This document shows positions 43,622 through 64,000 of a stretch of 64,000 bases of DNA, piece by piece. Below the pieces are notes generated by a model. The model did not search any database. It was not told the DNA's origin and saw only the letters and a program-made list of their open reading frames with translations. The translations under genes were made by a program, and so were the position numbers. Source of the DNA: an uncultured Mycoplasmatota bacterium. Lineage in GTDB: Bacteria; Bacillota_I; Bacilli_A; RF39; UBA660. Numbering within the stretch: position 1 is the stretch's first letter; each line of letters begins with the position of its first letter. The stretch spans positions 12,813-76,812 of the forward strand of contig URZY01000003.1 of NCBI GenBank assembly GCA_900552495.1, in the 5' to 3' direction.

Positions 43622-43651
43622 AAAAAAAAAGAATCTAGGTTATAGATTCTT
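43622..43651 (-). terminator. strong rho-independent terminator closing the Tad/T4SS operon
   Basis: Minus strand has AAGAATCTA-TAACC-TAGATTCTT followed by T7 then C. Confidence 0.8.
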
Positions 43652-44891
43652 ACTTAACTATATAAGGGTCTTCTGAGGTACCGCTACCACTTTTATACAT
43701 CACTTCATCACTCAAATATACTACTGGTCTAATTCGAGCCCAATTTAATGCTTTCTTAGCAGTTATACCATTACCTGGGGTTACTTGATAAGCATCTGTT
43801 GTAGATCCAGCTACGGCTGTTGCTAACCACCAATCATTACTGTCTACTAAGTAATTATAATTTTTACAAGTTAAATTCATAGGTGCTTTACAACTAGTAT
43901 CAACACTGGCATTCATAAAGTCAGCAGCTGTAAGTAAACTTATTTTTTGGTCTCTTTCTACTTCCTTACACTCTACTGCTTGCTCGGCCCCGGCTTGATT
44001 AGTAGCCCTTTTGCCTTTGCATACATTATGTACTACGATTCTTGATTTATCTTTATCACTTAATAGAACTTCAGTAATTGATTCATCAGTAGAATTATAT
44101 AATTCATCTAATTTCTCTTTTATTCTACTAGAGGAATAATTATTTATTCCAGCATCATAACTTGCTTCCTCACTATATCTATCATCCCAAGAAGACAATG
44201 TTGTTAACGGCTCTGCTCTAACTAATACAACATTATTAGCGGAGTTAATTTTTACAATTCTCCATAGAGCGCTATCTAATTGAACATAGTTATTTACTTG
44301 TTCACCACGGAAAACGTAATTACCATCCTTATTATAAAGACCATATCCTGAAGTTACTATTTTGTTGTCGTCTCTTATAACACGATATAATGCGGTTGTG
44401 GTATACGCTTCACCACAATCCAATTTGGGAATATAACTATATGTTGTTCCTGTCTTTTGAACTTTTACTGAACCAGTACAAGCTGTGTCTGTATATTTTG
44501 TCATCTCTTTCATTTTTCCTTCAGCTATTAATACTGATATATCAACAGTTTGAGTCCCACCATCTTTTTTAGGTAGACTTTCTGGGTGATCTTTAAAATA
44601 TGACTCGGCAGCGTTGCTCATAATTTGTTCAATATCTTCATATGACTTTTTTCCACCAGTTAGTGATGTTACAAAAATTATTAGTAAAACGCCAATCACA
44701 ATAACGACAATAGCCAAAAGCATCATTTTAATTAGCTTAGCTTTCCCCTCTTCATTACTTGGTGTGTTACTTTTATTACCATTTGATGTTGTATCTTCTA
44801 AGTCGAAATCCTCTTCCTCGTTTTCTTCTAACTCTTCAGCAATGATTTCTTTTCCGGTATTTTTATCTACGTTAAAATTCATCTTATCCAT
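43650..44891 (-). CDS. type II membrane protein, acidic cytoplasmic N-terminus and large Cys-containing ectodomain (last gene of the Tad/T4SS block)
   Basis: 413 aa with one TM at about residues 55-78. C-terminal pattern WWLATA...IRPVVYL...GSGTSEDPYIV. Confidence 0.55.
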   Translation of the reverse strand: MDKMNFNVDKNTGKEIIAEELEENEEEDFDLEDTTSNGNKSNTPSNEEGKAKLIKMMLLAIVVIVIGVLLIIFVTSLTGGKKSYEDIEQIMSNAAESYFKDHPESLPKKDGGTQTVDISVLIAEGKMKEMTKYTDTACTGSVKVQKTGTTYSYIPKLDCGEAYTTTALYRVIRDDNKIVTSGYGLYNKDGNYVFRGEQVNNYVQLDSALWRIVKINSANNVVLVRAEPLTTLSSWDDRYSEEASYDAGINNYSSSRIKEKLDELYNSTDESITEVLLSDKDKSRIVVHNVCKGKRATNQAGAEQAVECKEVERDQKISLLTAADFMNASVDTSCKAPMNLTCKNYNYLVDSNDWWLATAVAGSTTDAYQVTPGNGITAKKALNWARIRPVVYLSDEVMYKSGSGTSEDPYIVK

Positions 44892-44908
44892 ATGTATATC
44901 TCCTTTTA

Positions 44909-47338
44909 TTAATTATCAAAAAAGTCATCGAAGAAGTCATCATCATTGTCATCATCAGTAAGTGTTAAGTCAGCAGTTGGTTGTGGTACTTCTTTTATCG
45001 GTTCTACCATTTTTTCTTCTAAAGGTTTAAGTGGTTTATTTTCTTTAGGATCTGTTGCATTTATAAAATCGTCTAAACTAGCGATTGGTGAGGCGCTAGT
45101 AGATGCCTTTGGTACTGCTACTGGTCTAGTTTGAGGTGTGGCAACAGGTTTATTAACCACTTCTTTAGATGAAAGTGGACTAACTTTATTTTCTTCTTTA
45201 GCTCTTTTCTCTTCGGCTTCTAATTCAGCAATTTTAGCGTCAATCTTTTTTACCAATTCATCAACATCAAAACCTAAGTCATCATCCTCTATTGGCTTCG
45301 AAGTTGATTTTGTTTGTGGTTTTATTTGTTGCATAGTTGGTCGTGATGGAAAAATTGGCGTATTTGAGAAATCTTTAATTGCCTCTGATGATGCTTCGTT
45401 AGAAACACTTCTGCCACGAACCATACCACCCATTCTTGGTGCGTTACCCATTACCCTTTTTTCTTCCTGCTCATAAGGACTACGAGTTAAGAAGTCTGGA
45501 TACTGATTTTGATTTTGAACTGGTTTATCAAAAGGTTCTGGTTCTTTGTGCATAAAATCTGTAGGATTCATTCTTGGCATTGGCTGCTTTTGAGGTGGAG
45601 TTTGATTTGTACTATTCATCATTTCAAGCAGTTTTTTCTTTTTTTGTTCCTTAACAAACTCTTTAATATCAAAGGTTGAAACTTGGCGTTTTTTTCGAAC
45701 TGGGTACTTGGCTGTTGGATATTTTTTACCCCAGTCCAATTTGAAGTATGGAGTAAACTTTGTTTTGAATGGTTGTTTACGCATACGAAGGATTATCACT
45801 TCAAACTGTTTCATACGTTGTAAGTCTGAAACTGTTACTAGTGGTGTGGAAGCGGTTTTATCGTCCTTTTTGGATTTAACTTCTCCACACATTTTTGATA
45901 TTTCTTCTAAGGCTTTTAATTCTGTTGTAATTAAATAAATAGTGTTACCACAGTTACCTCTAATTGTCTCAGCATCTTCTTTTCCATATACAGAATCTAA
46001 TTGAGCAAAGTTTTGAATAATCATTGTAAATCTTATGCCACGTGAACGAGCGGCTGTAATCATCGTTGTTACATCTTTTAGAGGTGGCATATTGGCAAAT
46101 TCATCCAATAAGAAATTTGTTCTTACAGGAAGTTTTCCACCATGTCTTTGTGCAACGGAAATTAGGGTTTCATAAATTTGTTTTAAAAGAATAGTGACCA
46201 AGGAATGATAGGTTTTCTTTTCGTCTTGAATTACAATGAAAACAGCGGTTGGCCTTTCACCTATACTTTCTAAATCAACATCACTATACGATAGCATTTC
46301 ACTAAGATTATCACGTGAAGCAAATAATTTAACTTTTTGTTTAAATACCGATAGGATACTTCCTTTTGTCTCAGTTGGTGCCATAATGGTAGAGGAAGCA
46401 TTGATGGCAGCTGCGCTAGCAGGATCTTTTCCCGCAAAGTATTCTTTAATATAAGTTGAGCCACCAAATTTTTCTTCTCCTACTGTTGTCGCTAGAGAAA
46501 TACTATTGATATTTATTTCCTCAGGTTTAGCATCTTCAAATAAGCCTAGCGCTACTCCTGAAAAATAATCAGCAGAGGTTTTTTCCCAAAAAGGATCTGC
46601 ATTTTTATTTGAATCATCGTAAAGAATATTTAAAGCTAGGTCGTCTAGCAACTCAATTGCTTTATCCTGTTTACCGGTTTTATACATCTTATATGGTAAA
46701 GACATTGGGTTCCATGCATTACCATTTTGCGGATCACGAAAATTTAATAGTAATATTTGATAACCACGAGCTCGTAACATGTTGCTTGTTTTCTCATAAA
46801 TTTCACCTTTAGGGTCAGTAATAATCATTGATTCTCTGGCTTTGGCTAAACTGTGTACTTGTGGTAATATTACAGTTTGAGTTTTACCGGAACCAGTTGC
46901 TCCGATAACTAAAGAGTGATATTCACTATTATCAACCCACATTTCCTTTTCATTTAAAATGATAGGAACTCCAGCTGCCTTAGCATTACGTTGCTGAATT
47001 TCTACTCTCTCAAGTTCTTCTTTTATTTCTTTATCTTTAGCCCATCTTGAATAACCTTTATCTTTTTTGTCGGTTGTAATTCCAAAACCTTTTTCTCTTT
47101 CAAAGAAGTATGAGCTGACACTAACAAATAATCCTCCTAGTGTTAATAAATAAAATACAATAGTTGGAAATATATAATCAGGTCCAAAGGCAGGAAATGG
47201 ATTAAACCCAGCAAAAGTTCCTTCGGCAGCAAAGGTTGACAAATTGACAACAGCAATGGCAATTATATATAAAAGGACTAAGGCAAAGCCACCAAATATA
47301 AGCCAATCTTCTAAATCTGCACGTAATTTAAGTTTCAT
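44909..47338 (-). CDS. VirD4/TraG-type type IV coupling protein with ~270-aa low-complexity C-terminal extension
   Basis: Two N-terminal TM segments, Walker A VIGATGSGKTQ, ITDPKGE, and Walker B-like LLDEFANMP. The tail is P/Q/K-rich and ends DDDNDDDFFDDFFDN. Confidence 0.8.
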   Translation of the reverse strand: MKLKLRADLEDWLIFGGFALVLLYIIAIAVVNLSTFAAEGTFAGFNPFPAFGPDYIFPTIVFYLLTLGGLFVSVSSYFFEREKGFGITTDKKDKGYSRWAKDKEIKEELERVEIQQRNAKAAGVPIILNEKEMWVDNSEYHSLVIGATGSGKTQTVILPQVHSLAKARESMIITDPKGEIYEKTSNMLRARGYQILLLNFRDPQNGNAWNPMSLPYKMYKTGKQDKAIELLDDLALNILYDDSNKNADPFWEKTSADYFSGVALGLFEDAKPEEININSISLATTVGEEKFGGSTYIKEYFAGKDPASAAAINASSTIMAPTETKGSILSVFKQKVKLFASRDNLSEMLSYSDVDLESIGERPTAVFIVIQDEKKTYHSLVTILLKQIYETLISVAQRHGGKLPVRTNFLLDEFANMPPLKDVTTMITAARSRGIRFTMIIQNFAQLDSVYGKEDAETIRGNCGNTIYLITTELKALEEISKMCGEVKSKKDDKTASTPLVTVSDLQRMKQFEVIILRMRKQPFKTKFTPYFKLDWGKKYPTAKYPVRKKRQVSTFDIKEFVKEQKKKKLLEMMNSTNQTPPQKQPMPRMNPTDFMHKEPEPFDKPVQNQNQYPDFLTRSPYEQEEKRVMGNAPRMGGMVRGRSVSNEASSEAIKDFSNTPIFPSRPTMQQIKPQTKSTSKPIEDDDLGFDVDELVKKIDAKIAELEAEEKRAKEENKVSPLSSKEVVNKPVATPQTRPVAVPKASTSASPIASLDDFINATDPKENKPLKPLEEKMVEPIKEVPQPTADLTLTDDDNDDDFFDDFFDN

Positions 47339-47388
47339 ATTACTACTTCCTTTCTCTCTTATTATAACCTAACTTTAAAGAAATGTCA

Positions 47389-48171: not shown

Positions 48172-48174
48172 ATG

Positions 48175-50502
48175 TTACCCCTCCACTTTAAAGCAAGCTA
48201 ATCTACTTGTATTTTGCCAATTGTATTGTCCCCATAAGTCGGTTGAGGTACTACCGGGATCCATCATTAGAACTTGCGAACCAGAAACAGTATCAATTGC
48301 TACCCAGTGTTGTCCAGTATTGCCTTTTACTTCGGCAGTTACGTAGCAACCATTATTTAGTAGTTCTGTAATCGCATTAAGTTTTTGTTGTTTTGAGTAA
48401 CCAGATACAGCGTATGAGCCTTGATATTTAAAGGTTGGAGCGGCAAGTGAGGCAGCAGACCAAACAAAGTTTCCACCACTAACAAAGCCACCATTTTTAC
48501 TAAGATATTCAACGAATGTTCCAGGATTAAAATCAGTAATCGTTGTAGGAACGCCACTTTTAGCGATTAGAATTGCAACAGAAGTAGCCAAACAGCCGAT
48601 TTGTTTGATTGTTTTACCGCTATTGCCTAGGTAAACGCCAGCCCATGGTCCTTCATATTGTTTCCAACTGGCAAATGGTCCTGTTGAAGCATTACCACAT
48701 GATGAGGATCCGGAAGTATTACATGACATTTTTTGAACATCAGCAGCTCCATATGGTCTAGCTGAAGAGTTATAAACCTCTAGGAGAATTTGCTTATAAT
48801 TCATCCCTGAATTAGCATAGTTTGTGAATTTATTGGACTCTGTAGATAAATATCCCGCTGAAATTATATATCCTTCAGCATTAACTAAAACTTCTCCTTC
48901 GGTGGCAGCTGCTGCAGTACGTAATTGGTGATCAGCAGCTAGAGCATCCCTTGTTCTAATAGCACCGCTGTGATTAGTACCACTTCGAACTATTCCGCCT
49001 TGTCCATCACCACCGCCCATATAAGAACAGCCTTCATTGATATTACAGAAAACTTGATCGGCAACGCAGGAAGATATTTGTAACACCCATTGGTTGCCCT
49101 CTTGCTCCAACTTTTTTCCAGCAGCATTACCCATAGCTGTCGGTCTTGCTAAAGCGAAGCTTCTAGCGGCTACCATTTGTGCCTTTAAAGCCTCCATTGG
49201 GGCATATGATCCTATTTCAGCGTTGGCCACACCTGCAACGTACTCTTCGAATGGTACCATATCTTGATCAATTGGGGTTGTGTAACTTCCATTTCCATAA
49301 GGTGAACCACATTCCATTAACCGTACCATTAGATTGGAAATTTGCATTGGCTTAGAGACATTACCACCACCTGGGATGTAGAAGCCTTTTATATCATAAG
49401 TACAGGAACCAGAGGCAGCACAACTAAGAGTGGAATCCTTGCCAATGAAGCTATAGTATCTTTCTATATAGTCAAAGACATCTTCAGCTAACTGTTCTCG
49501 GGCTGATTGTGAATATCTTGGAAAGTAACTGGCAAAAATATCATTAATTAAATTATCTTTAAAAGTTGTTTCACTGTACATATTTCCACTAAACATTGCA
49601 TTGGCAATTTCTTCAATTCTAGCGGTTGTCATATAATCATAATCATAATCACTATTATTAACATTCAATACATGATAAACGGCTACTACCTTGAGCGAAT
49701 CTACTGTTTTTCCATTAGCTTGAAATGATAGTTTTACATCGTTAACTCTTTCATAAAAAGCCTGAGCGTCTTCACTAGTGGCACTAAAGACTATTTCACC
49801 AGTATCTTCACCAGTAAGAGCACTAATACCTAAGGCATCATCAAAATCGTTAACACCTCCACCAATAATAGAAATTACCATTAAAAATAGCATTAATAAA
49901 CCAAATGCAGGCAAAACAGGTAGTAAAACTTTTTTAATGTCAATGGTTCCTTTAAGAAAGGCTAAAAAGTCCGTATCTTTGTTATTAACATCTTCTTCGG
50001 GATTTTCTGACTCATTTGGGTCATCAAAAAAACTTGAAGGCTGTTTTTTACCTCCAAATCCACCTAGTTTGCCAAGTCCCCCTAGTCCACCAAATGAACT
50101 TTCTGATGAATCGCTTGAACCATCGGTACCATTTGTATTTTGGTTAGTCGGTGTAGTTGGAGTTGCTCCAGTAGCACCGTTGTACATAGAGGCTGCTTGA
50201 CCAACTTTATCGGTCATACCACTTTCATTCATTTTATTAATGCCATTTTGTAACTGACTGCCACCAGGCATTGTTTGATTAGTTCTATTTAAGGCTTTTC
50301 CTAAAGCTTCTGAACTCTTACCTTTTGTTGCTTTATCTGCTACTTTAACAGCGGCCCCTGCGGCCATTGCATAAGGATTTTTAGTAGCAATGGCTACGTC
50401 AGCGGCTTTTTTGACAGTATTTGTATTATTGCGTTCATTTCGTTCTTTTTGGGACATTTGATTATCGCCACGATTTGCTTCATACGCCATTGCTACCACC
50501 AC
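48175..50502 (-). CDS. bifunctional cell-wall hydrolase: SpoIID/LytB-like domain plus C-terminal papain-like Cys peptidase
   Basis: A TM at about residue 200, a SpoIID-like segment EEYVAGVANAEIG...EALKAQMVAARSFAL, and a C-terminal Cys/His pair GCLATSVAIL ... GQHWVAIDTV. Confidence 0.65.
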   Translation of the reverse strand: MVVAMAYEANRGDNQMSQKERNERNNTNTVKKAADVAIATKNPYAMAAGAAVKVADKATKGKSSEALGKALNRTNQTMPGGSQLQNGINKMNESGMTDKVGQAASMYNGATGATPTTPTNQNTNGTDGSSDSSESSFGGLGGLGKLGGFGGKKQPSSFFDDPNESENPEEDVNNKDTDFLAFLKGTIDIKKVLLPVLPAFGLLMLFLMVISIIGGGVNDFDDALGISALTGEDTGEIVFSATSEDAQAFYERVNDVKLSFQANGKTVDSLKVVAVYHVLNVNNSDYDYDYMTTARIEEIANAMFSGNMYSETTFKDNLINDIFASYFPRYSQSAREQLAEDVFDYIERYYSFIGKDSTLSCAASGSCTYDIKGFYIPGGGNVSKPMQISNLMVRLMECGSPYGNGSYTTPIDQDMVPFEEYVAGVANAEIGSYAPMEALKAQMVAARSFALARPTAMGNAAGKKLEQEGNQWVLQISSCVADQVFCNINEGCSYMGGGDGQGGIVRSGTNHSGAIRTRDALAADHQLRTAAAATEGEVLVNAEGYIISAGYLSTESNKFTNYANSGMNYKQILLEVYNSSARPYGAADVQKMSCNTSGSSSCGNASTGPFASWKQYEGPWAGVYLGNSGKTIKQIGCLATSVAILIAKSGVPTTITDFNPGTFVEYLSKNGGFVSGGNFVWSAASLAAPTFKYQGSYAVSGYSKQQKLNAITELLNNGCYVTAEVKGNTGQHWVAIDTVSGSQVLMMDPGSTSTDLWGQYNWQNTSRLACFKVEG

Positions 50503-50519: not shown

Positions 50520-52310
50520 TTAGAATCCTCCACCTGTTCCAAAAGACTCTAACTCTTCTTTTGTTACAGCAACATTTATTCTCATACGTCTACTACCACA
50601 AACAAATAGAGCTTCTCCTTGAGAATAACGTTTTATACTTTCTTTTTCATTTTCATTTAAATCTATTAATAATGCTAAATCTTCTACAGCTTGTTTCTTT
50701 AAGCCCATTACTAAGTAATAAGATGCATTATCAAAAATTGCTTTTCCTTCTGTAATTACTGCTGGAGCAGCGAAATCACTAGGCTGTTGTGTAATAATAA
50801 TTGTTCCGGTATTATATTTACGCGCACGTCTTTGAACTTGGGCTAAGAATTCAGCTCCCTGCTGGTTACGATCACCTAGTAAAACATGAGCTTCATCGAC
50901 TAGCATGACTGTATCAACGCTTGCATCAAGACATAATCCCCAGGCATATTTTAAGACGTTAAATAGTAAAGCATTTCTAATATTGCTATCACTATTCATT
51001 AGTTCTTTTATATTAAATACCATAAAGTCACTATTTTTTCTTAGAGTTGTATGTCCATCAAAATAAAATCTTAATTCCTTAACGATTGGTCGAACTTCTA
51101 ATTCTAGTCTTTCCATAATATCACGTTCTTTTGTTTGATCTGTCATTGATAAAAGACGTCCTTTTATTGTGGCATAAACATCAGAAAAAACTGGAAAGTC
51201 AGCGGATGTAAAATGCGAAAAGTCAGTATCAAAGTCTATTCCAAAACGTTTATATGTATCTTGAACAACATCGCTAAACATAGCTAAAACATCATTAGCA
51301 ATAGTTGGGTTATAATACTTCATAAAGCCTTTTAAGAATTGTAAGGTTCTATTTAACACAGTATACCCCATTCCATTTTTTATTTCTTCCTCATCAGCAT
51401 CAAAGACTACTTCAAGGGGATTAATTAAACCAAAATCTCCACCTTTACCAATATCGATGGTATCGCCTCCAAATGATTTAGTAATATCTCTAAATTCATC
51501 TTCTGGGTCAATAATAACTATTTGACAACCATTTCTAATATGCGTTCTTAATAATAGTTTGGCTGCTGTTGATTTTCCGGAACCGGAAGTACCAAGAATA
51601 ATCATATTAGCATTGTTTCTATTATGTTCTTTTCTAATTTTATATAAGAATTGGTTAAACAAAATTACTCCACCGGAAAAATCAACACCCAATAATGTTG
51701 ATAGCCCTGGGTCTTTAATGCTATCAAAAATAAATGGATACATGGCTGCTACTGTAACTGATGGTATCGGAGTACCAATTCGTTGTTCAATATCTTGAGG
51801 TGGAAAAATTGGCAACATTGATTTTAAAACTTTTTCTTGTTCAAAACGTAAAGAAATTGCCTTTAACTCCATTGCATCAAGATAGTTTTTTACATTCATT
51901 TTCTTTAATTCTAAGGTTTCTTTAGTATCAGCAGAAACCATAATATGCATTTGAAAATCAAAGTTTCTAGCTTGGCTTCCTGCGATCATTGATGTAAAAT
52001 ATTCCAAGCTTTCAGCATCTTGACGATATCTTTCACGAAGCGTTTGATCACGTTCGTTTTGGTATTTTTCTTTTAAGTCAGCTATTTCTTTGTTTAACAT
52101 TTTAACCATATCTTGATATGGAACGGGAATATGCTTAATGACAATCTTAATTCCAGCCATATTAGTTAGGGATGCTAAATAACCTGGCGTTATATATTTA
52201 GGAAATGAAACAACAGTTAAAATTGTTGCATATTTGTCACTTATAAAAAAATCACTTGGTGAAAAATGTAGCCCTTTTGGAGCTAATTGGCTTCTTATTC
52301 CTGTACTCAT
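50520..52310 (-). CDS. VirB4/TrsE-type conjugation ATPase, ATPase portion
   Basis: Walker A ILGTSGSGKST and Walker B MLVDEAHVLL. 596 aa. Confidence 0.8.
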   Translation of the reverse strand: MSTGIRSQLAPKGLHFSPSDFFISDKYATILTVVSFPKYITPGYLASLTNMAGIKIVIKHIPVPYQDMVKMLNKEIADLKEKYQNERDQTLRERYRQDAESLEYFTSMIAGSQARNFDFQMHIMVSADTKETLELKKMNVKNYLDAMELKAISLRFEQEKVLKSMLPIFPPQDIEQRIGTPIPSVTVAAMYPFIFDSIKDPGLSTLLGVDFSGGVILFNQFLYKIRKEHNRNNANMIILGTSGSGKSTAAKLLLRTHIRNGCQIVIIDPEDEFRDITKSFGGDTIDIGKGGDFGLINPLEVVFDADEEEIKNGMGYTVLNRTLQFLKGFMKYYNPTIANDVLAMFSDVVQDTYKRFGIDFDTDFSHFTSADFPVFSDVYATIKGRLLSMTDQTKERDIMERLELEVRPIVKELRFYFDGHTTLRKNSDFMVFNIKELMNSDSNIRNALLFNVLKYAWGLCLDASVDTVMLVDEAHVLLGDRNQQGAEFLAQVQRRARKYNTGTIIITQQPSDFAAPAVITEGKAIFDNASYYLVMGLKKQAVEDLALLIDLNENEKESIKRYSQGEALFVCGSRRMRINVAVTKEELESFGTGGGF

Positions 52311-56901: not shown

Positions 56902-56937
56902 AATGTATATGATACATTATTTAATTTTTTTTGTCAA
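56902..56937 (-). promoter_or_regulatory. internal promoter with overlapping 7-3-7 palindrome upstream of the VirB2-like gene
   Basis: Minus strand has TTGACA, 17 nt, then TATCAT. The perfect inverted repeat AATGTAT-CAT-ATACATT (56902-56918) covers the -10 box and the start-site region. Confidence 0.5.
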
Positions 56938-56941: not shown

Positions 56942-58006
56942 CTAGCGTCTAAACAAACCAAATATTTTGCTACTGCTTGTAGTAACTTGAACAAGACCTA
57001 ATTTAGATAATAATCCAGTTATTGCCTCATTCTTCTTTCGATCATTTAGAGGGGGCAATGTATAAAAGAACTTTATACCTGCTTCGTATTCTAATTCACT
57101 AACTTCCTTTGTAGTCAGTAGAGATTGATTAAGAATTACTTTTTGGTTTTTTAGATTTGCAAAGATTTTGCTATTTTTTCTTATTAATTTATTTAATTTT
57201 AGTGTGCTTGATTCTATTAAGTATAGAACATCATCACAAATTGTGTTATCTTCATAATCATTTAGATCAATTAATATAACAGACATTCCATTATATCGTC
57301 CGACAACACCTCTTAGATCATTTGTATTTGAAGAGACCATAGCTTGATCGTTAAAGAATTGAAATTCATTTTTATTAACTTCTATTGCAACTACTTTATT
57401 TTCTCCAAATACTGATGTTAGCTCTTTTTTCATCATATAAATCAGGCTTGAGGCGCCGGCATGTTCTGACACTGATTTAACACCTAATCTTATGGTTCTA
57501 TTCATAATACCTTGTGGTGCCTGAACAGTTTGAATGTCATTTTTTGGCACATGCACTTGGACTGCTCCAGTCTCATTTAGCGCATTGGGATCTTGTGGGA
57601 TTGGTGATGGAGGTAATCCTCCACCTCCCATTTGTTGAATGTGAGCAACATCTTTATAAGTATTGGATTTTTTTAATAAGTATTTTACCCCTTCCAGATT
57701 AGTTGTAAAATTGTAAATTCCTAGTGTAACTAGTTGGGCTAAAAAATTAGGTGTACAAATGCTATTACCTTCAGGAATGAAAAATACTATTTTATCTGGA
57801 TCCAATCCCTCAGCTAAAATTTTAAACATTTTAACATCTGTATATCCTTTTATAGCAGTTACGTCAAGAACCATTTTGCTATAAAAGAAGTTCTTGAACA
57901 TTTCTACAATTTCATTGGCTCCATATGTTCCTGTAATACTTTTAATTACATCTATGTCAAGAGTGGCAATTTGTGCTTGTTGTTCATTCGCGATAATTAC
58001 ATTCAC
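56942..58006 (-). CDS. TadZ/CpaE-like protein (receiver-like N-domain plus ParA/MinD-like domain with degenerate P-loop)
   Basis: 354 aa. The C-terminal half RTIRLGVKSVSEHAGASSLIYMM...VILIDLND resembles a MinD/ParA fold, but the KGGxGK[ST] box is absent. Confidence 0.35.
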   Translation of the reverse strand: MNVIIANEQQAQIATLDIDVIKSITGTYGANEIVEMFKNFFYSKMVLDVTAIKGYTDVKMFKILAEGLDPDKIVFFIPEGNSICTPNFLAQLVTLGIYNFTTNLEGVKYLLKKSNTYKDVAHIQQMGGGGLPPSPIPQDPNALNETGAVQVHVPKNDIQTVQAPQGIMNRTIRLGVKSVSEHAGASSLIYMMKKELTSVFGENKVVAIEVNKNEFQFFNDQAMVSSNTNDLRGVVGRYNGMSVILIDLNDYEDNTICDDVLYLIESSTLKLNKLIRKNSKIFANLKNQKVILNQSLLTTKEVSELEYEAGIKFFYTLPPLNDRKKNEAITGLLSKLGLVQVTTSSSKIFGLFRR

Positions 58007-58012: not shown

Positions 58013-58468
58013 TCACCACCCTACAACTATCGGCTTAGTATCACCCGAAACTTGAAATATTTTAAGTCCAGGTAATATTTTGTTGATAATTGGTATGTCG
58101 ATGTTTATTTGCGTAACTACCTTAAAATATGCTCTATCTTTAGTATCATCTGTACTGGATGTTGCAGGCTTAGCAATATCAATTTTTTTAAAGCAATAAC
58201 CATTGCCACATGTATATCCGTCCCCAGTCAAATCAAAATTGGGAGCATCATAGCCAAGCTGTTTCATATATTCTAGTATTTGGATATGACATTGATTATT
58301 TGCATCAATTGCACATTGGCCTTCATATTGTTCAAAGGTCGAAATAATTTTATTTTTTACTCTGAATGCTTTCGTATAGTTTACATTGAAAGCTAGATAT
58401 CCAGAAACTAAAACTAGGAAGACAACAATAATTACTAAGTTGACTACCCCACCAAAAGCATCACGCAT
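58013..58468 (-). CDS. prepilin-like (TadE/pseudopilin-like) protein
   Basis: The N-terminus MRDAFGG-VVNLVIIVVFLVLVSGYLAF is a short charged leader, then Gly, then a hydrophobic helix. Confidence 0.5.
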   Translation of the reverse strand: MRDAFGGVVNLVIIVVFLVLVSGYLAFNVNYTKAFRVKNKIISTFEQYEGQCAIDANNQCHIQILEYMKQLGYDAPNFDLTGDGYTCGNGYCFKKIDIAKPATSSTDDTKDRAYFKVVTQINIDIPIINKILPGLKIFQVSGDTKPIVVGW

Positions 58469-58487
58469 TTAAACACACCTTCTTTTC

Positions 58488-58646
58488 TTATCTTTCTACA
58501 ATGATTGTACCACCACTGATATTATCCCATTGAGCATTTAATGAATTTTGAATATTTGGCCACATAATCCAGAAGAATCCGATTACAGCAGCAATTGCTA
58601 TCAATGTAATAACTGTTAAGTTTAATTCACCTGTCGCATCTTTCAT
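58488..58646 (-). CDS. 52-aa Flp-like type IV pilin (not in ORF track)
   Basis: MKDATGELNLTVITLIAIAAVIGFFWIMWPNIQNSLNAQWDNISGGTIIVER. It has its own RBS and promoter, sits between the TadC-like and pseudopilin genes, and has the size and architecture of Flp pilins. Confidence 0.6.
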   Translation of the reverse strand: MKDATGELNLTVITLIAIAAVIGFFWIMWPNIQNSLNAQWDNISGGTIIVER

Positions 58647-58708: not shown

Positions 58709-58724
58709 CTTTTTTTATGTTACT

Positions 58725-59534
58725 TTACATACTAAACATCATCATCATGGAAATTAGTATAACTAACATGACGCCAACTCCGGTTACTACAAGCATAACC
58801 ATTGTTTGTGACTCCATGAATCCTAGACGTTCTTTGTACTTCGTTTCTCTTGCTTTATTTTGTAAAGCAGATACTGTTTTAGAAAACATCATTAGACGTT
58901 CTTGCTTTTTTTCTTGAGAACCTAGTCCTAAACGATACAACAAACGCATCATACGCATTGAATCTCTTACAGGATAGGTATTGGCAAATTCCATGTATGG
59001 ATCGATTGTTGCATCACCAGCATTAATACGGTCAATTAATTTTCTTAAGCCTGGTTTGAATATTTCTGGAGCATCATCAATTGACTTACCTAAGGCGACT
59101 GGTACAGTATAGTGTTGAATTAAGATTTCCAAGCTCTTTAAATAGTATGGCAACATTACATCTATTTCATGTAAATGCTTTTTATAATAACTTTTTAACT
59201 GTGTATATGATGACTTAAATACTATATAAGCAACAAAGGCAGCTAAAACTAAATATAAAATTAGTTTTGAGTTTAGCATACCTTGTGAATCTCCACCACT
59301 TAGTGCAAAGGCTAAAACAATGAAGAAAGTTAAAATTCCATATGTTACTCTTTTCATATATAGTTGGTCAACATCAACATTCTCTCCATACCTTGCATAA
59401 ACTAGAAATTCATAATCACTCTCTTTTAAAGCTTCTAGATATTTTTCGTTATCTGCAAAAAATTTATTCTTATCAATGGTATTATTGTAGACGAATACAA
59501 AAATTAAAATTACTCCTATTAATACTATTTCCAT
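58725..59534 (-). CDS. TadC-like T2SS-F-family platform protein
   Basis: 269 aa. It has TM helices in the N-terminal half and at the C-terminus, around a cytoplasmic domain ...LPYYLKSLEILIQHYTVPVALGKSI...INAGDATIDPYMEFANTYP. Confidence 0.6.
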   Translation of the reverse strand: MEIVLIGVILIFVFVYNNTIDKNKFFADNEKYLEALKESDYEFLVYARYGENVDVDQLYMKRVTYGILTFFIVLAFALSGGDSQGMLNSKLILYLVLAAFVAYIVFKSSYTQLKSYYKKHLHEIDVMLPYYLKSLEILIQHYTVPVALGKSIDDAPEIFKPGLRKLIDRINAGDATIDPYMEFANTYPVRDSMRMMRLLYRLGLGSQEKKQERLMMFSKTVSALQNKARETKYKERLGFMESQTMVMLVVTGVGVMLVILISMMMMFSM

Positions 59535-60436
59535 TATTCAGCACCTACATTCTCATTATAATATTTTTCTCCTTTTAAAAGGAAATATGTATTACATATC
59601 AAAACAAAGTGAAGTAATACTTGAATATACCATCTCTCTAATAGAACTAAATATGTTTCGTCTCCTAGTAGGAATTGAACTAACATTACTAATAGGTATA
59701 ATGTAATACCAAATGATAAGAAATTTTTATGGAAGGATGCTCTTTCAATACGATCTCGATAAACGCTTTCAATCAGCATGTCAATATCAAGCTGCATGTT
59801 ATCTAGAGAATCGGCTGAGTTTCTAGCTCCTTCTTTGGTTATTTGTAAAAACAATTGGTGCATATTTTTAACTATATAGTACGGATAAAGTCCACTCATA
59901 TATTCTAATGCTTCATCAATTGTACCATTTTCATATGACATTTCAATCATTCTATTTACATCACTTAGAACTGGATCTTCTAAAATTCCAGAATTTCTTA
60001 CACCTTCTAGTGATTTTACGAATGATTGGGTAGTTGCAAATTCCATTATAACGTTTGAAGTATATACTTGTATTTGCTCAAAAATAAACTCTGAATAAAC
60101 CCTTTTACATCTTAGATATGCTAAGTACGGTACAAAAGAAACAGCCGCAATGGCATAAAAGATACTAATAACAATATTATAAAAGTATAAGTATGTTACA
60201 ACTCCAGCAAATCCTGCAAAAATTACTATTTGCATGATATATTGCTTGGTAGTGTATTCTTGTCCTAATTGCTTTGCTTTTTCTCTTACGACTTTAAATG
60301 AGAAAGGGGCGTATTTATCGTATACGGTTTGGACTTGATTGGTTATAAATTTTCCAATGTTTTGGCCTTGATAATTTCTATATAAGAAAATACCAACGAC
60401 AATTACTATCATTATTAATAATTCTTCAAAATACAT
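59534..60436 (-). CDS. TadB-like T2SS-F-family platform protein
   Basis: 300 aa. Cytoplasmic domain ...YENGTIDEALEYMSGLYPYYIVKNMHQLFLQITKEGARNSADSLDNM flanked by TM helices. Confidence 0.6.
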   Translation of the reverse strand: MYFEELLIMIVIVVGIFLYRNYQGQNIGKFITNQVQTVYDKYAPFSFKVVREKAKQLGQEYTTKQYIMQIVIFAGFAGVVTYLYFYNIVISIFYAIAAVSFVPYLAYLRCKRVYSEFIFEQIQVYTSNVIMEFATTQSFVKSLEGVRNSGILEDPVLSDVNRMIEMSYENGTIDEALEYMSGLYPYYIVKNMHQLFLQITKEGARNSADSLDNMQLDIDMLIESVYRDRIERASFHKNFLSFGITLYLLVMLVQFLLGDETYLVLLERWYIQVLLHFVLICNTYFLLKGEKYYNENVGAE

Positions 60437-60448
60437 AAATACTCCTTT

Positions 60449-61990
60449 CTACGCTGGCAAGCTTGCTGGTACTTGTGGTGTATCTGGTGCTAAAGCTTGG
60501 AGCGGTTGTTCAATGGTCTGAGGTATAACCGGGGCAAGTGGTACTGGAGTCTGCTCAGTTGTTACCGGGGCGGCCGGTTGTCCATCTAATACCAAGGCAG
60601 GAGTTGGTTCTGGTTGAGTTGGCAGTGCTGGTATTATTGGAGGAGCTACCGAAGTTACTGGTGCTTCTATAGTCTGTGGTGCTATTTGAGTTTGCTCAGT
60701 AGTTGGTACTTGCTCTAATTGTTGAACGGTTGGAAGTGGTTCACTCTCTGTTTTTAATTCAGTTGGCGCAGCCGATAATGGTGTTGGTTGCTGTTCTGTT
60801 AACGTTGCAACCGGTTGAGTTTCTTCACTAGCAGATGGGGCTGCTGGCGTACCAGGAGCATGTAATCCTGGAGTTGTCTCTTCTGTTGTATCGCCATTAC
60901 TGAAGTCTGCTTGTTGTGTTATTGGCATTTCCTCAGGTAATTTTTCTACAATAGCTTGAACATCAATATTTTGATTCTCCAAATATTGTAATAAATGGGC
61001 ACTTGGCTTACGCATGACGGGCTCTCTACCAAAAATTTTTTGGTAGATTACTCTAGATTGTGGAACATTATTATCATCAACATAAAATTCACAAACTTCA
61101 TCTAACTCACGATGAAATTTTCCACGTTCTTTACTATAGTAAGCTTTAATATGAACTCCCAATTGAATGTATCGATAAATTGTCGTTAAGAACTGATTTA
61201 CGTCCAAATCAGTTTCCATCAAACTGTAAAGACGGTATGGTATAGCCGATGCTTTATCAGCGTGGATGGTTGATAAGATATTGTGTCCTGAGGAGATTGA
61301 GTTACGCACTGCTGAGACTGCTTCAGCACTACGCACCTCCGATAAAAGAATCCATTTGGGATTCTGACGCATACAGGTTACTAAAACATCTGAGTAGCCG
61401 GCTACATTATTTGTCTTCATTGCAACAATGTCTCTTTGTGGAAAGATTTTATCCAAGTGAAGCTCTAATGTATCCTCAATGGTAATTATCTTTTCACTTG
61501 TTTTAGTATGGCTTGCTAGGTACTTAACAAATTCTGTTTTACCAGAACCAGTTTCTCCAGCAACCATAACATTACAGTGTCCCTGAACACATTTTATTAA
61601 TAAATCATGAATATCTTGGGTGAAATAATCATCTTTAATTAGTTTTTCTTTTTCTAGTCGAATCTTGGCTGGAGTTTTACGTATAACTAGAGCAATTCCA
61701 TTGGTTGCTATAGATTGATGAACAAAGTTAAGACGTAATTCTGCAGATTCAGCATCTAGAAAGGGTTTAGCATTATTAAATGTAGTACCCATAACATTGG
61801 AACACTGAAAAGCTAGTTTTTCAACAAACTCTTGAGTGGCTCCTTCTATTTCTACTCGTAGGGACCCTTGAGTTAGTGAACGTATCCAGATTTGTCCTCC
61901 GTTATCATACGAAATATCTGTTATATCATCATTGTCTAATAATGGACGAAATGGTCCAAAGTCTAGTTTGTCGAAGATATTTTCATTCAT
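60449..61990 (-). CDS. CpaF/TadA-type secretion ATPase with ~130-aa P/T/Q/A-rich C-terminal tail
   Basis: Walker A VAGETGSGKTE, Walker B region KWILLSEVR and His box LSTIHADKA. The tail is PGTPAAPSASEETQPVATLTEQQPTPL.... Confidence 0.8.
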   Translation of the reverse strand: MNENIFDKLDFGPFRPLLDNDDITDISYDNGGQIWIRSLTQGSLRVEIEGATQEFVEKLAFQCSNVMGTTFNNAKPFLDAESAELRLNFVHQSIATNGIALVIRKTPAKIRLEKEKLIKDDYFTQDIHDLLIKCVQGHCNVMVAGETGSGKTEFVKYLASHTKTSEKIITIEDTLELHLDKIFPQRDIVAMKTNNVAGYSDVLVTCMRQNPKWILLSEVRSAEAVSAVRNSISSGHNILSTIHADKASAIPYRLYSLMETDLDVNQFLTTIYRYIQLGVHIKAYYSKERGKFHRELDEVCEFYVDDNNVPQSRVIYQKIFGREPVMRKPSAHLLQYLENQNIDVQAIVEKLPEEMPITQQADFSNGDTTEETTPGLHAPGTPAAPSASEETQPVATLTEQQPTPLSAAPTELKTESEPLPTVQQLEQVPTTEQTQIAPQTIEAPVTSVAPPIIPALPTQPEPTPALVLDGQPAAPVTTEQTPVPLAPVIPQTIEQPLQALAPDTPQVPASLPA

Positions 61991-62027
61991 CTAACTCACA
62001 TCCCTTTAATTCTTTAATTCTTTTATT

Positions 62028-62822
62028 TTATTGTTCCGTCCAAACTGTAACTCTATTAATCCAGTCTTTTAATTGTTCACTACTAATTTCAAGATCGCCT
62101 GGTTCATCTTTCATGCTTTCATTTGTTGGTACTGGTATTAGGGTTGATTCGTAGGTTCGCAAGTATTCAGCTTTCTTTAGTAAAACATAATACTCTTCTG
62201 GTACAGCAAAGACAATCATTGCTGGTGTTCTTTGTTCATCCAAATTTGAGAATACTGGTTGTCCGCTAGAATCTTTTACAGCTAGAACCTTAACGTTAGA
62301 TAATAATTTACCTAACATAATTTTGTCTGAATCAGCTGTTGCTGCTTCACCTTCTGCTAATCTGTTTACAGCTTTTAAATAAATATCTATATAGTTACCT
62401 GGATAAATTGAGTTACCATAGGTTGTTGCTGTAGTAACAGACATGTTGTATAATACATATCCTTTTGGATAAGTAAGAATAATATTTGCAGGTAGTTGTT
62501 CTTTTTCTACAACTGTTCTTGTATAAAATAAGCTTCCTGCAGGAATAACTGTATCAGCACTTGAATATTTATCAATTACTTGGTTTTGAGCCGTTAATAC
62601 TTCTCCTTCTAACATTGAAGGGGGAACAGCTCTTGTACCAACCATATCGGCAGTTATTTGTGTACCTGGGTTAATTTGAACTTTTGCATAAGGCACATTA
62701 ACTGGGTTAATTGCTGATTGAACACGCATGTTATAAGCAACATATAGTATTACAATTGCAGCAATTATTCCGATTACAGTTACCGTATTTTTATTTTGTA
62801 AAAATTTCTTTAATCCTGTCAC
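62028..62822 (-). CDS. CpaB/RcpC-like SAF-domain pilus assembly protein
   Basis: N-terminal TM followed by the SAF-like segment VPYAKVQINPGTQITADMVGTRAVPPSMLEG. Confidence 0.6.
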   Translation of the reverse strand: MTGLKKFLQNKNTVTVIGIIAAIVILYVAYNMRVQSAINPVNVPYAKVQINPGTQITADMVGTRAVPPSMLEGEVLTAQNQVIDKYSSADTVIPAGSLFYTRTVVEKEQLPANIILTYPKGYVLYNMSVTTATTYGNSIYPGNYIDIYLKAVNRLAEGEAATADSDKIMLGKLLSNVKVLAVKDSSGQPVFSNLDEQRTPAMIVFAVPEEYYVLLKKAEYLRTYESTLIPVPTNESMKDEPGDLEISSEQLKDWINRVTVWTEQ

Positions 62823-62845
62823 CTTTTCATTCCTCTCCTTTTCTT

Positions 62846-63322
62846 TTAATCATTACTTCTTGAACCGATTGCTTTACCCATATCATCGTTAGGATCGGCT
62901 AAAGCATCTCTTGTAAAGTCATCCCTTGTGTAATCAGTTTCAATGATTGCATCTAGGTTTGTTGATATATTTGCTGATTCTCCAGAAAAGCTTAGTACTG
63001 TTAATGAATCTACCTTAACACTTACTTTTGGAGGAACTTCGTTAATATCATAAAAACTTATATAATATGAACGAGTATTGTCTACACTATCGGCAAATCG
63101 ACGAAGGAAGCTCTCAACGAACTTCTCTTTGTCAATTCTTATTAATGAGTTTAGTCGATAATATTCTGTATCAATAGCATCTTCCATAGCTGCTTCTGTT
63201 GTTTCTTTAACTAGGTAGTAGTCTAACTCGCCACCTGTTGAGTAGTTACTAATTACATTGATTAGTAATAATGCGATTAAGCTTAGTAAGATAATACCTA
63301 CTGTTAACATTCCCTTATTCAT
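62846..63322 (-). CDS. prepilin-like (pseudopilin) protein
   Basis: N-terminus MNKG-MLTVGIILLSLIALLLINVI followed by an acidic ectodomain. Confidence 0.45.
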   Translation of the reverse strand: MNKGMLTVGIILLSLIALLLINVISNYSTGGELDYYLVKETTEAAMEDAIDTEYYRLNSLIRIDKEKFVESFLRRFADSVDNTRSYYISFYDINEVPPKVSVKVDSLTVLSFSGESANISTNLDAIIETDYTRDDFTRDALADPNDDMGKAIGSRSND

Positions 63323-63339
63323 TTACTTCATCGACCTCC

Positions 63340-64000
63340 CTATTCATTATTTACTCCAGGATCTCCTGTTTTTAATACAGTTCCTGTTATGTCGTGTAAA
63401 TTAATATTACTTTCAATTGAACCCTCTGCAGAATTCCATAAGTTACTTAAGTATACGTTAACACCGTTTTTGGTAACGGTTTTTCCATTCCATGCACCAT
63501 AAGCATACTTCTTATTGTATTGTCTAATTTTTCTTAGTGTGGTTGGAGTTAAGTAGAATTGATAATCTAAGTATGAATCAACTGAATGTAGTTGATCAGC
63601 TGTTCCTTCAATTTCTTGAATTAAAGCAACTGGGTCAACATGATAATTTGGATTCTTTAATTCTAAGATTTTAGCATCTGATGTCCAGTTAAATCCGATA
63701 GGTCTTGTGTTTTCAGAAACTACACTAGATACTGTTCTATTAGGGAATAAATTAGCTCTGTCTACAGTTCTGACAACATAATTATCTAACCCTTTGGTTG
63801 TTTTATCGCATGGTGGATTTGTACAAGTTAGATCATCTGTTGTACAACACTTCTTGGTTGATTCATCGTCGATGTTACATACTTCATTTCTTAATCCATA
63901 GAAACAGCCAATATTGAAATTCCATCCAAAATATCCGAAATTTGTAGCTGTAGCTTTTATATTATAACCATTTGATGTATTGTCATTTGTTGCTAATTCA
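63340..64000 (-). CDS. C-terminal part of a larger secreted, Cys-rich protein (gene starts beyond the window)
   Basis: An uninterrupted minus-strand frame runs from 64000 to TAG 63340-63342: ...NFGYFGWNFNIGCFYGLRNEVCNIDDESTKKCCTTDDLTCTNPPCDK...GDPGVNNE. It contains no Met, so it is absent from the ORF track. Confidence 0.6.
   Translation of the reverse strand, partial: ELATNDNTSNGYNIKATATNFGYFGWNFNIGCFYGLRNEVCNIDDESTKKCCTTDDLTCTNPPCDKTTKGLDNYVVRTVDRANLFPNRTVSSVVSENTRPIGFNWTSDAKILELKNPNYHVDPVALIQEIEGTADQLHSVDSYLDYQFYLTPTTLRKIRQYNKKYAYGAWNGKTVTKNGVNVYLSNLWNSAEGSIESNINLHDITGTVLKTGDPGVNNE

Follow-up and report, generated by a model that had tools for sequence, protein, structure and literature searches.

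A 64,000-nt stretch of contig URZY01000003.1 (GenBank assembly GCA_900552495.1), from an uncultured bacterium of the order RF39, carries a block of tightly packed minus-strand genes in which the genes of a type IV secretion system (T4SS) are preceded by genes resembling those of Tad pili. The whole stretch is referred to here as the window, and its positions are used throughout; the block runs from 43650 to the window end at 64000. We read this block as a relative of the conjugation cluster of pLS20/pAW63-type plasmids that has become fixed in the chromosome and is passed on vertically, with a built-in Tad-like sub-module, and give this reading a probability of about 0.6. Its genes have homologs on the plasmids and share their architecture, and in RF39-type species the block occupies a chromosomal site, is syntenic and has no relaxase or integrase gene nearby. 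The gene layout itself is already known; the new part is its fixed, inherited chromosomal state in RF39. Judged by its gene content the block is not a recognisable mobile element, the main oddity of the locus and one that a preliminary description of the same DNA had missed. A non-exhaustive search of the RF39 genomics literature found no mention of such a system.

Chromosomal setting and inheritance

In a scan of one genome per species, 462 genomes had a relative of the secretion ATPase of the block, and synteny was examined in the best 80 of these 462 and in metagenome loci. The 80 are metagenome-assembled genomes labelled Bacilli, 'uncultured Mycoplasma', Tenericutes or Erysipelotrichaceae, recovered from human, ruminant, rabbit, mouse, and chicken guts. 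One of them is Candidatus Faecimonas (GTDB genus CAG-877, order RF39), with a genome of 1.4 Mb and 28% GC; RF39 is phylogenetically interspersed with Mollicutes. The preliminary description had proposed looking for the same colinear order in other genomes, and it was found, being constant in essentially every locus of sufficient length. From upstream to downstream the genes are greA, a 518-aa membrane protein, an Ig-like surface protein, a sortase, a Cys-rich protein, a DUF5411 protein, a CpaB-like protein, the ATPase, two membrane proteins (TM300 and TM269), a 52-aa protein, a 151-aa protein in one or two copies, proteins of 354, 109, and 375 aa, a VirB6-like protein, a 104-aa protein, and the N-terminal and ATPase domains of VirB4. 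Metagenome loci centred on VirD4 show a cell-wall hydrolase, a 260-aa protein, VirD4, and a 413-aa protein, then rhodanese, DedA/VTT, and rmuC genes. Because the order repeats in 80 species-level genomes and further metagenome contigs, chance is ruled out.

The site of the block is thus chromosomal, between greA and rhodanese-DedA-rmuC, and this insertion point repeats in dozens of species. The rest of the window comprises housekeeping and sporulation genes (lon, tig, trpS, valS, mreCD, yunB, and a sigma factor gene). Pairwise divergence of the block proteins tracks that of the flanking RmuC, with a Spearman rho of 0.85 for VirD4 and 0.81 for VirB4, and the mean identity between species is 86–87% for the VirB4 ATPase protein, 88% for GreA, and 73% for RmuC. 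Divergent relatives are also trailed by chromosomal genes, namely NAD salvage genes, spoVAD, and histidine kinase genes. Conserved flanks, co-divergence, and housekeeping-level conservation therefore point to a strongly constrained chromosomal locus that is inherited vertically. Among the called genes of the window and the ~10 kb upstream of it (~74 kb of one genome), none has a relaxase, integrase, or replication Pfam family, and tblastn with the pLS20 relaxase MobL was negative for both the window and 2.8 Mb of related loci.

These data bear directly on whether the block could be an integrated conjugative element (ICE), or the remnant of one, that still serves its own spread, as in the pilus-assisted conjugation machine envisaged in the preliminary description. 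All recognisable relatives of known function are plasmid conjugation operons, the VirD4 protein scores above the NCBIfam cutoff of the CD1115 conjugation family, and the GC content of the block is slightly above that of its flanks, all of which would suit such an element. An element in transit would not, however, be expected at the same greA / rhodanese-DedA-rmuC insertion point in dozens of species, co-diverging with rmuC at housekeeping-level conservation, with no integrase, relaxase, or replication gene in ~74 kb and with divergent relatives that are chromosomally flanked as well. We consider an element of this kind highly unlikely.

Two sets of more distant loci show other arrangements. 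A chromosomal relative in a related lineage with 29% GC (L170, 9209–14539, and L171) adjoins rplM-rpsI, and in it the CpaB gene is directly followed by homologs of TM300, TM269, and the 354-aa protein together with a VirB6-like gene; an ATPase gene is missing between CpaB and the platform genes, and small pilin-like genes are missing as well. In this lineage the ATPase may be encoded elsewhere or have been lost. In six divergent metagenome loci (L143, L144, L146, L154, L156, and L157) a homolog of the 518-aa membrane protein lies a few genes past VirD4, which suggests that the two halves of the block stand in the opposite order in another lineage.

Relationship to conjugative plasmids and other secretion systems

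A translated search of plasmids with the ATPase gave conjugative plasmids of Bacillus and Enterococcus as the best matches. In pLS20 of B. subtilis, a single operon encodes an adhesin, gene 36 (126 aa, with an N-terminal anchor), and gene 37 ('tadA'/VirB11); the membrane proteins 38 and 39 (268 and 243 aa), genes 40 and 41 (120 and 47 aa), and gene 45 (76 aa, two transmembrane [TM] helices); a CD1115-family VirD4, an extended VirB6, a 103-aa two-TM protein, and a 192-aa protein followed by VirB4; and VirB8-like and VirB1-like proteins, with the relaxase further on. The same gene set is thus present in one operon, including a split VirB4 (genes 51 and 52) and the small N-anchored proteins 40 and 41, and the VirB4 profile matches gene 52 with an E of 1.1e-40. 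The two systems differ in that pLS20, a plasmid, carries a MobL relaxase together with auxiliary relaxosome genes and has both quorum-sensing control and surface exclusion; that a CpaB/SAF gene is missing from it, as is any ParA-fold protein with detectable similarity to the 354-aa protein; that its VirD4 gene precedes VirB6; and that its adhesin is a thioester protein, whereas RF39 has a Cys-rich protein and a sortase. Identity between pLS20 and RF39 proteins is 24–35%.

Gene content is closer still in pBMB68 of B. thuringiensis, which we take to be a pAW63/pXO2-type plasmid and which matches the Tad-like half gene for gene, CpaB/SAF included. Its T4SS part is co-oriented and consists of VirD4, TrbL/VirB6, PrgI, a 227-aa protein, VirB4, and an NlpC/P60 hydrolase; these are followed by a large surface protein, a DUF5411 protein, a SAF-domain protein, an AAA (ParA-like) ATPase, and a T2SS/T4P/T4SS ATPase, and the series ends with two ~300-aa proteins, a small protein, and a DUF4320 protein. 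The E. faecium plasmid pZB18 has the same layout in one co-oriented cluster. Plasmids of the pBMB68/pZB18 type differ from the RF39 block in being conjugative plasmids with MOBP relaxases, and in pBMB68 the order of the modules is reversed. The VirD4 proteins of pLS20, pZB18, and pBMB68 are all annotated as CD1115 family, like that of RF39. MOB-suite/PLSDB type the three plasmids (L169, L175, and L176, respectively) as MPF_T, a diderm class, perhaps because of their VirB11-like ATPase.

The preliminary description had regarded Tad-like and monoderm conjugation modules as separate loci and the combined architecture as undescribed. Neither view survives, since pLS20, pBMB68, and pZB18 carry both modules in one cluster; the architecture belongs to a conjugative element class already known, which that description had itself named in advance as an outcome that would refute it. 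By comparison of gene content, a T4SS with a Tad-like gene cluster is an established, under-annotated feature of a class of Gram-positive conjugation systems. Gene tables of the pLS20 family name the ATPase 'VirB11' and enter the genes after it as conserved unknowns (Val-Calvo et al. 2021, PMC8557374). Those of pAW63, published in 2005, likewise list a 'VirB11' with conserved hypothetical proteins of 278, 250, and 121 aa after it, and in them a 223-aa protein precedes VirB4 (PMC1196294). In a literature search that was not exhaustive, pLS20 genes 36–41 were still given as unknown, including in a 2025 review of T4SS nomenclature, and a Tad-derived reading of these genes was not found. From self-transmissible plasmids and ICEs in general the RF39 block differs in having no linked relaxase or mobile-element carriage within the ~74 kb searched.

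Three other systems invite comparison. The thin pilus of the IncI1 plasmid R64 is a type IV filament of a conjugative element that assists mating, and was named as the nearest precedent in the preliminary description. This type IVb pilus (PilQ/PilR/PilS/PilV) is a diderm system whose genes stand apart from the Dot/Icm-like transfer genes, and its layout is not homologous to that of the RF39 block; the Gram-positive plasmids pLS20, pAW63, and pZB18 are much closer. The T4SS of Mycoplasma ICEs resembles the block in that NF045975 is the best model for both VirB4 pieces, with scores under its cutoff of 590, and in that the VirB6-like protein weakly matches NF045889. These ICEs are mobile, their hosts are wall-less, and they are not known to carry a T2SSE ATPase, CpaB, or cell-wall hydrolase module.

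The closest parallel is the T4SS of Patescibacteria, which is likewise monoderm, conjugation-type, chromosomal, relaxase-less, and widespread in a lineage of reduced genomes. It is reported as chromosomal and mostly relaxase-less, has VirB2-like pilins, and has been read as co-opted for a nonconjugative role (Quinonero-Coronel et al. 2025, PMC12102498); in one species it is thought to be essential (PMC12102498; reviewed in PMC12857230). It differs in belonging to another phylum and in that neither a CpaF/VirB11-family ATPase nor a Tad-like sub-module has been reported for it.

The Tad-like sub-module

The CpaB-like protein passes the Pfam cutoffs for both RcpC and SAF (Table 1). It also matches TIGR03177 below the model cutoff (E 1.2e-11), and hhalign against the SAF/CpaB proteins of pBMB68, Streptomyces, and Ralstonia gave a probability of 98.7% (E 3e-16). 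On these profile matches it is a bona fide SAF/RcpC homolog.

The ATPase is 35% identical to the product of pLS20 gene 37 (profile E 8e-54). Among NCBIfam models, VirB11 and TadA-type families tie at 107 bits, both far under their cutoffs, and a sequence search of the PDB gave 71.5 bits for CpaF, 70.6 for FlaI, and ~52 for VirB11, the lead of CpaF over VirB11 being only ~20 bits. In a neighbor-joining tree the protein forms a clade with the ATPases of pLS20, pZB18, and pBMB68 (bootstrap 96) that lies outside the well-supported VirB11 clade. By these comparisons it is neither a canonical VirB11 nor a canonical CpaF; an intermediate position agrees with the PDB and NCBIfam scores. The tail of the ATPase (60449–60955, residues ~345–513) is of low complexity and rich in Pro, Thr, and Gln, and between species the open reading frame (ORF) varies from 394 to 737 aa around a core that is 70–92% identical.

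TM300 and TM269 occupy the positions of the two platform proteins TadB and TadC. TM300 matches pLS20 gene 38 (E 3.6e-21 with the diverse profile A4; hhalign 98.5%), and TM269 matches gene-39-like plasmid proteins (hhalign 95%, E 3.8e-8). Compared with a TadB/TadC alignment, the diverse TM300 profile reached 75.9% over 185 colinear columns, and after merging with the plasmid homologs the probabilities rose to 91.8% for TM300 (E 7.5e-7) and 93.2% for TM269 (E 2.9e-7). Ten unrelated families from the locus, used as negative controls, gave P 0.2–0.8 against TadB/TadC, and a positive control, TadB/TadC against E. coli HofC, gave only 18.8%. Low-diversity alignments were too shallow for such comparisons (A2 against A3, 1%; A2 against TadB/TadC, 0.7%). 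Because TM269 and the TM300 superfamily match each other at 96.5%, the two proteins are paralogs, as TadB and TadC are.

The order CpaB, ATPase, two membrane proteins, a ~55-aa protein, and a ~150-aa protein matches that of a Tad locus on a plasmid of the monoderm Streptomyces, which reads SAF protein, hypothetical protein, CpaF, T2SSF, T2SSF, 62-aa protein, TadE, TadE. The N-terminus of the 52-aa protein, MK[AD]ATGELNLTVITLIAIAAVIGFFW, is almost invariant in 71 orthologs, and by eye it is like the small Streptomyces protein ...GQGTTEVAVITAVVIVVAAG. For the 151-aa protein hhalign gave weak matches only, to DUF4320/gene 40 (P 0.006) and TadE (P 0.012); many species have two tandem copies of this gene. 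The 354-aa protein had no Pfam match and no significant hhalign match to TadZ/ParA sequences. Its predicted structure consists of an N-terminal alpha/beta domain and a SIMIBI domain, and the top Foldseek matches were FlhF, HypB, MinD, and ParA (E 1e-4 to 6e-4, probability 1.00). Its P-loop is degenerate, the lysine being absent, with a conserved ...EHAGA(T/S)S; that lysine aside, the modelled architecture is TadZ/CpaE-like. The protein was also considered as the positional equivalent of pLS20 gene 47 and this was dropped, hhalign against gene 47 being negative.

Upstream of CpaB, the N-terminus of the DUF5411 protein, MNKGMLTVGIILL, is nearly invariant among orthologs. The product of pLS20 gene 36 matches DUF5411 below the cutoff (1.4e-5), and pBMB68 has an annotated DUF5411 gene at the matching position; in Clostridia, DUF5411 genes adjoin CpaF and PilC/GspF genes (PMC9523054). 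The 962-aa Cys-rich protein has a signal peptide and neither a Pfam family nor an LPXTG signal. It occupies the slot of the large surface proteins of pLS20, pBMB68, and pZB18 and on this ground is probably the adhesin of the system.

We read the upstream half as a sub-module descended from a Tad (type IV filament) system and now integral to this class of T4SS, and not as a standard Tad pilus. It resembles Tad/Flp (type IVc) loci in its homologous CpaB and in platform paralogs that match TadB/TadC at hhalign probabilities of 92–93%, and differs from them in having no Pfam T2SSF, Flp, or TadE match, no TadV in the locus, and an ATPase in a separate clade. Classical Tad loci, unlike the RF39 block, are not linked to VirB4, VirB6, or VirD4. 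Of the Tad module as first described, the RcpC/CpaB protein holds, a T2SSE-domain ATPase is present, a ParA/MinD fold is predicted for the 354-aa protein, and the two T2SSF-like proteins are recovered by hhalign and not by Pfam. The Flp and TadE calls keep their size, position, and N-terminal hydrophobicity, with neither an EY motif nor a significant profile match; the TadZ call keeps the predicted fold, with no sequence-level match and no P-loop lysine. A VirB11-type ATPase and membrane proteins outside T2SSF had been named as evidence that would dispose of a Tad module altogether; the ATPase falls outside the VirB11 clade, and the link of the membrane proteins to T2SSF is one of remote homology.

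Two independent neighbors, a Tad-type adhesive pilus and a separate T4SS with no functional coupling, could also produce such a block. The 55-nt gap that separates the halves contains a strong promoter-like site, the L170 relative has no ATPase gene between its CpaB and platform genes, and the homolog of the 518-aa protein downstream of VirD4 in some divergent loci, where Tad-like genes were not seen, hints that module order may differ. The two gene sets nevertheless occur jointly in all RF39-type loci and on at least three distinct plasmid families, where either set may come first. The ATPase clade is moreover shared only with conjugative plasmids, and the platform protein and VirB4 diverge in a correlated way (rho 0.64). 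Two uncoupled machines therefore appear unlikely.

Several results weigh against our preferred reading of a conjugation-type T4SS with a Tad-like sub-module. Neither TM300 nor TM269 matched Pfam T2SSF or any NCBIfam model even permissively, across the window proteins, 31 orthologs, and 10 distant homologs, and profile searches of the PDB with both gave no match. Foldseek of the TM300 AF2 model (all-helical, pLDDT 82) against the PDB found nothing below E 1 and no platform domain, so fold-level support for T2SSF was not obtained; the profile comparisons make the link to T2SSF one of remote homology and not membership by a curated model. The 52-aa protein has no Pfam match, no Flp G/XXXXEY motif, and no significant hhalign match to Flp; the Pfam TadE model gave no match either, and the hhalign comparison of TadE with the 151-aa protein was not significant. 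A TadV/CpaA (A24-type) prepilin peptidase was not found among the called genes of the window and the 10 kb upstream. With no prepilin peptidase in the region, no EY motif, and no significant Flp or TadE match, a true pilus is unproven. The grouping of the ATPase clade with CpaF has a bootstrap of only 42%. The promoter-like site between the halves could mean two transcription units. The relaxase searches covered ~74 kb of one genome and one relaxase type in related loci, and a distantly encoded relaxase is possible. As no substrate, relaxase, or oriT was identified, transfer is assigned to the block by homology only.

Genes of the type IV secretion half

Coordinates of the block features are given in Table 1. 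The T4SS module of the preliminary description is borne out in its main parts: VirB4 is recognised by AAA_10 and P-loop_TraG, VirD4 reaches 310.1 bits with NF045973 (CD1115 family; cutoff 250), and hhalign pairs the VirB6-like protein with VirB6/TrbL of pLS20, pZB18, and pBMB68 at a probability of 95.4%. Curated family models gave no significant match for the VirB6-like and VirB3-like proteins. VirD4 is 27% identical to the product of pLS20 gene 48 (profile E 8.4e-70); its long low-complexity tail (44909–45650, residues ~560–809) ends in acidic DDDNDDDFFDDFFDN. The NF045889 match of the VirB6-like protein (Mycoplasma ICE transmembrane protein) has an E of 0.007. The gene of the 104-aa VirB3-like protein lies directly upstream of VirB4, the same position as on the plasmids.

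VirB4 is encoded by two genes with a 4-nt overlap, of ~182 aa and 596 aa, in every related locus that reaches it. The ATPase domain scores 343.5 bits with its best NCBIfam model, NF045975 (Mycoplasma ICE VirB4), and does not reach the family cutoff of 590; its length among species is 593–598 aa, mostly 596. The N-terminal domain is assigned to PF26593 (TraC-like) in precomputed annotation and matches its plasmid counterparts with an hhalign probability of 97.2%. Since the split is kept in all related loci that reach it, it is a real two-gene arrangement, in agreement with the two ORFs first described, and it also occurs on pLS20, pAW63, pBMB68, and pZB18. A frameshift or pseudogene reading of the split was rejected on the same grounds.

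The two-ORF VirB4, together with a ParA-like protein that lacks the P-loop lysine, might be taken as signs that the block is a decaying, nonfunctional relic. The conserved split is, however, common to functional plasmids, the Walker A and B motifs of VirB4 and the Walker motifs of the CpaF/VirB11-family ATPase and VirD4 are intact, core proteins keep a mean identity of 67–87% across species, and lengths are near-fixed (300 aa, with a few of 301–316, and 593–598 aa). The conservation data effectively refute decay and leave it a negligible probability.

The VirB2-like calls of the preliminary description are retained as candidates, the T4SS_pilin matches of the 109-aa and 375-aa proteins both lying below the cutoff. 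The positional counterparts of the 109-aa protein are pLS20 gene 45 and the TrbC/VirB2 gene of pZB18; gene 45 clears the Pfam T4SS_pilin cutoff (32.1 bits), in contrast to the statement that pLS20 has no VirB2 homolog (PMC8557374). Comparison by hhalign of the 52-aa protein, the 109-aa protein, and the C-terminus of the 375-aa protein with Flp or VirB2 references was uninformative. Orthologs of the 375-aa protein range from ~127 to 532 aa among species; the hairpin is kept, and the ectodomain appears to have been gained, lost, or swapped.

For the hydrolase, described earlier as SpoIID plus peptidase, the SpoIID domain holds and the C-terminal 150 aa match no Pfam family; on pZB18 and pBMB68 its place is taken by NlpC/P60 or lytic transglycosylase/C40 enzymes. 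The 260-aa bitopic protein may have a VirB8-like role. Weak, sub-threshold NCBIfam matches to the P-loops of CedB and CedD were also seen.

Table 1. Features of the T4SS and Tad-like block in the window, in order of position
Feature	Position	Strand	Basis or remark
Terminator-like hairpin	43622..43651	-	9 bp, AT-rich, 2 G-C pairs, then U9; sequence and fold
Bitopic surface protein, 413 aa, last gene of block	43650..44891	-	Weak DUF6273 match, E 0.028; after VirD4 in most close loci
VirD4-type coupling protein	44909..47338	-	T4SS-DNA_transf 8.2e-57, TraG-D_C, TrwB_AAD_bind
Bitopic protein, 260 aa	47389..48171	-	No family match; kept between hydrolase and VirD4 in related loci
Membrane-anchored cell-wall hydrolase, SpoIID domain and Cys/His C-terminal domain	48175..50502	-	Pfam SpoIID 3.7e-13; TIGR02669 1.2e-15
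VirB4 ATPase domain	50520..52310	-	AAA_10, P-loop_TraG, DUF87
VirB4 N-terminal domain, own gene	52307..52861	-	NF045975 residues 100–276, E 1.2e-13, 49.7 bits
VirB3/PrgI-like protein, 104 aa, two TM	52842..53156	-	hhalign against DUF5592/PrgI 57%, E 1e-4, 90 columns
Extended VirB6-like polytopic channel protein	53180..55315	-	Profile against pLS20 gene 49, E 1.3e-8
Secreted protein, 375 aa, C-terminal VirB2-like hairpin	55344..56471	-	T4SS_pilin E 0.0057, residues 292–342, sub-threshold
VirB2-like pilin candidate, 109 aa, two-helix membrane protein	56557..56886	-	Pfam T4SS_pilin E 0.008, below cutoff
Promoter-like site TTGACA-17-TATCAT	56909..56937	-	Gap between Tad-like half and T4SS half; 11/12 consensus match
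Cytoplasmic protein, 354 aa, receiver-like N-domain and ParA/MinD (SIMIBI)-fold C-domain	56942..58006	-	AF2 pLDDT 79.6 and Foldseek
N-anchored protein, 151 aa, TadE/pseudopilin size	58013..58468	-	Conserved N-terminus MRDAFGG(I/V)VNLVIIVVFL
Protein of 52 aa, Flp-pilin size, hydrophobic core	58488..58646	-	Size and hydrophobic N-terminus
TM269 membrane protein, pLS20 gene 39 ortholog, TM300 paralog, remote T2SSF-like	58725..59534	-	hhalign
TM300 membrane protein, pLS20 gene 38 ortholog, remote TadB/TadC (T2SSF)-like	59534..60436	-	Profile and hhalign
CpaF/VirB11-family secretion ATPase	60449..61990	-	Pfam T2SSE 1.8e-27
CpaB/RcpC-like SAF-domain protein	62028..62822	-	Pfam RcpC 30.3 bits (cutoff 28.8), SAF 21.6 bits (cutoff 21)
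DUF5411 protein, N-terminal hydrophobic anchor (pseudopilin-like)	62846..63322	-	Pfam DUF5411 E 9.9e-48
Secreted Cys-rich protein, 962 aa (33 Cys), 3' end	63344..64000	-	Open frame at window end; full gene at L001 5763–8651

Borders and transcription signals of the block

The ORF listing contains 18 complete minus-strand ORFs and one frame open at the window end, and the computed junctions consist of overlaps of 1, 4, and 20 nt and gaps of 3–85 nt, the widest (85 nt) between 56557 and 56471; the nineteen tightly packed genes of the preliminary description are thereby confirmed. The block does run past 64000, as that description had it, and is longer than was stated. Contigs with an identical ATPase add the full 962-aa Cys-rich protein, a sortase, a 600-aa Ig-like surface protein, and the 518-aa membrane protein, followed by greA. 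With four further upstream genes on related contigs, up to greA, the unit comprises ~23 genes. The conserved sortase (L001 4940–5785, just past the window end) has a TLTTC active-site motif and is part of the block. Processing of a block protein by this sortase was considered and dropped, no C-terminal LPXTG-type sorting signal being present in any block protein. Some species (L023, L024, L029, L043, and L064) have a second pair of Cys-rich and DUF5411 genes upstream of the 518-aa gene.

The strong terminator claimed at the downstream border is present as a hairpin with its U9 tract. As a terminator it is plausible in a 30% GC genome (the window has ~30% GC), but a consensus terminator scan, which needs three or more G-C pairs, missed it, and the z-score of its fold does not go beyond -1.5. 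The promoter-like site has the highest consensus score in the block; shuffled sequences yield no fewer matches in total, making the site a lead only.

Other genes of the window

Outside the block, three minus-strand regions have no Pfam family on record (6569–8998, 22885–24369, and 32081–34403), encoding proteins of 809 aa, 494 aa, and three of 228–286 aa. A gene for an MvaI/BcnI-type restriction endonuclease lies among the housekeeping genes in the region of 19234–19995 (plus strand; L008 3891–4577).

Proposed working of the machine

Under our preferred reading, the SpoIID-domain hydrolase would open the cell wall, and the VirB3-like, VirB4, VirB6, and bitopic proteins would form a membrane channel. 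The CpaF/VirB11-family ATPase, acting on the two platform paralogs and CpaB and placed by the ParA-fold protein, would drive assembly, in which the small N-anchored proteins, and perhaps the VirB2-like ones too, would build a short fibre or pseudopilus. Such a fibre could span the thick envelope, carry or position the channel, and present the Cys-rich and Ig-like adhesins. VirD4 would recruit DNA or protein as the macromolecular substrate and hand it to VirB4/VirB6, to be passed to another cell upon contact. The plasmid systems transfer relaxase-bound DNA, whereas the RF39 block has no linked relaxase. Inheritance in the manner of a housekeeping locus makes it probable that the block has been co-opted to serve the cell itself and not the spread of an element.

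What that function might be allows for a further possibility, that the block was co-opted for uptake or obligate cell contact, either to import DNA or nutrients or to attach to another cell and exploit it. ComB of H. pylori, the archaeal Ced system, and the essential T4SS of epibiotic Patescibacteria would serve as models by analogy, and a chromosomal, relaxase-less, lineage-wide system in a lineage with reduced genomes (~1.4 Mb) follows the pattern of Patescibacteria (PMC12102498, PMC12857230). An extensive set of adhesin and sortase genes is also conserved with the block. VirD4-type coupling proteins, on the other hand, are typical of export, and as an account in its own right we find this unlikely; it overlaps the preferred reading of a chromosomally fixed conjugation relative and is not exclusive of it.

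Implications for RF39 and for monoderm type IV secretion

Gram-positive conjugation systems are usually described without pili and without a VirB11-type ATPase. If confirmed, a Tad-derived ATPase–platform–CpaB sub-module, extending from plasmids to RF39 chromosomes, would point to monoderm T4SSs equipped with a filament or pseudopilus motor as a widespread class. The maintenance of a relaxase-less block at one site with housekeeping-level conservation, as found in the best 80 of 462 species genomes, would, if confirmed, imply a core cellular role.

We speculate further, giving the idea a modest chance of being correct, that RF39 depends on this T4SS and Tad-like machine for an obligate cell-contact life, with attachment to and exchange of macromolecules with other bacteria or host cells. 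If true, RF39 would join Patescibacteria as the second lineage in which, independently, a conjugation machine has become a core organ of the organism, and the 'VirB11 plus unknown genes' carried by pLS20/pAW63-type plasmids would turn out to be a filament motor of Tad origin for crossing the thick wall. RF39 is an abundant, uncultured, small-genome order of the human and animal gut, and confirmation of these findings could guide its cultivation, for example by way of a partner-dependent lifestyle, and could help explain horizontal gene flow in Bacilli with reduced genomes.

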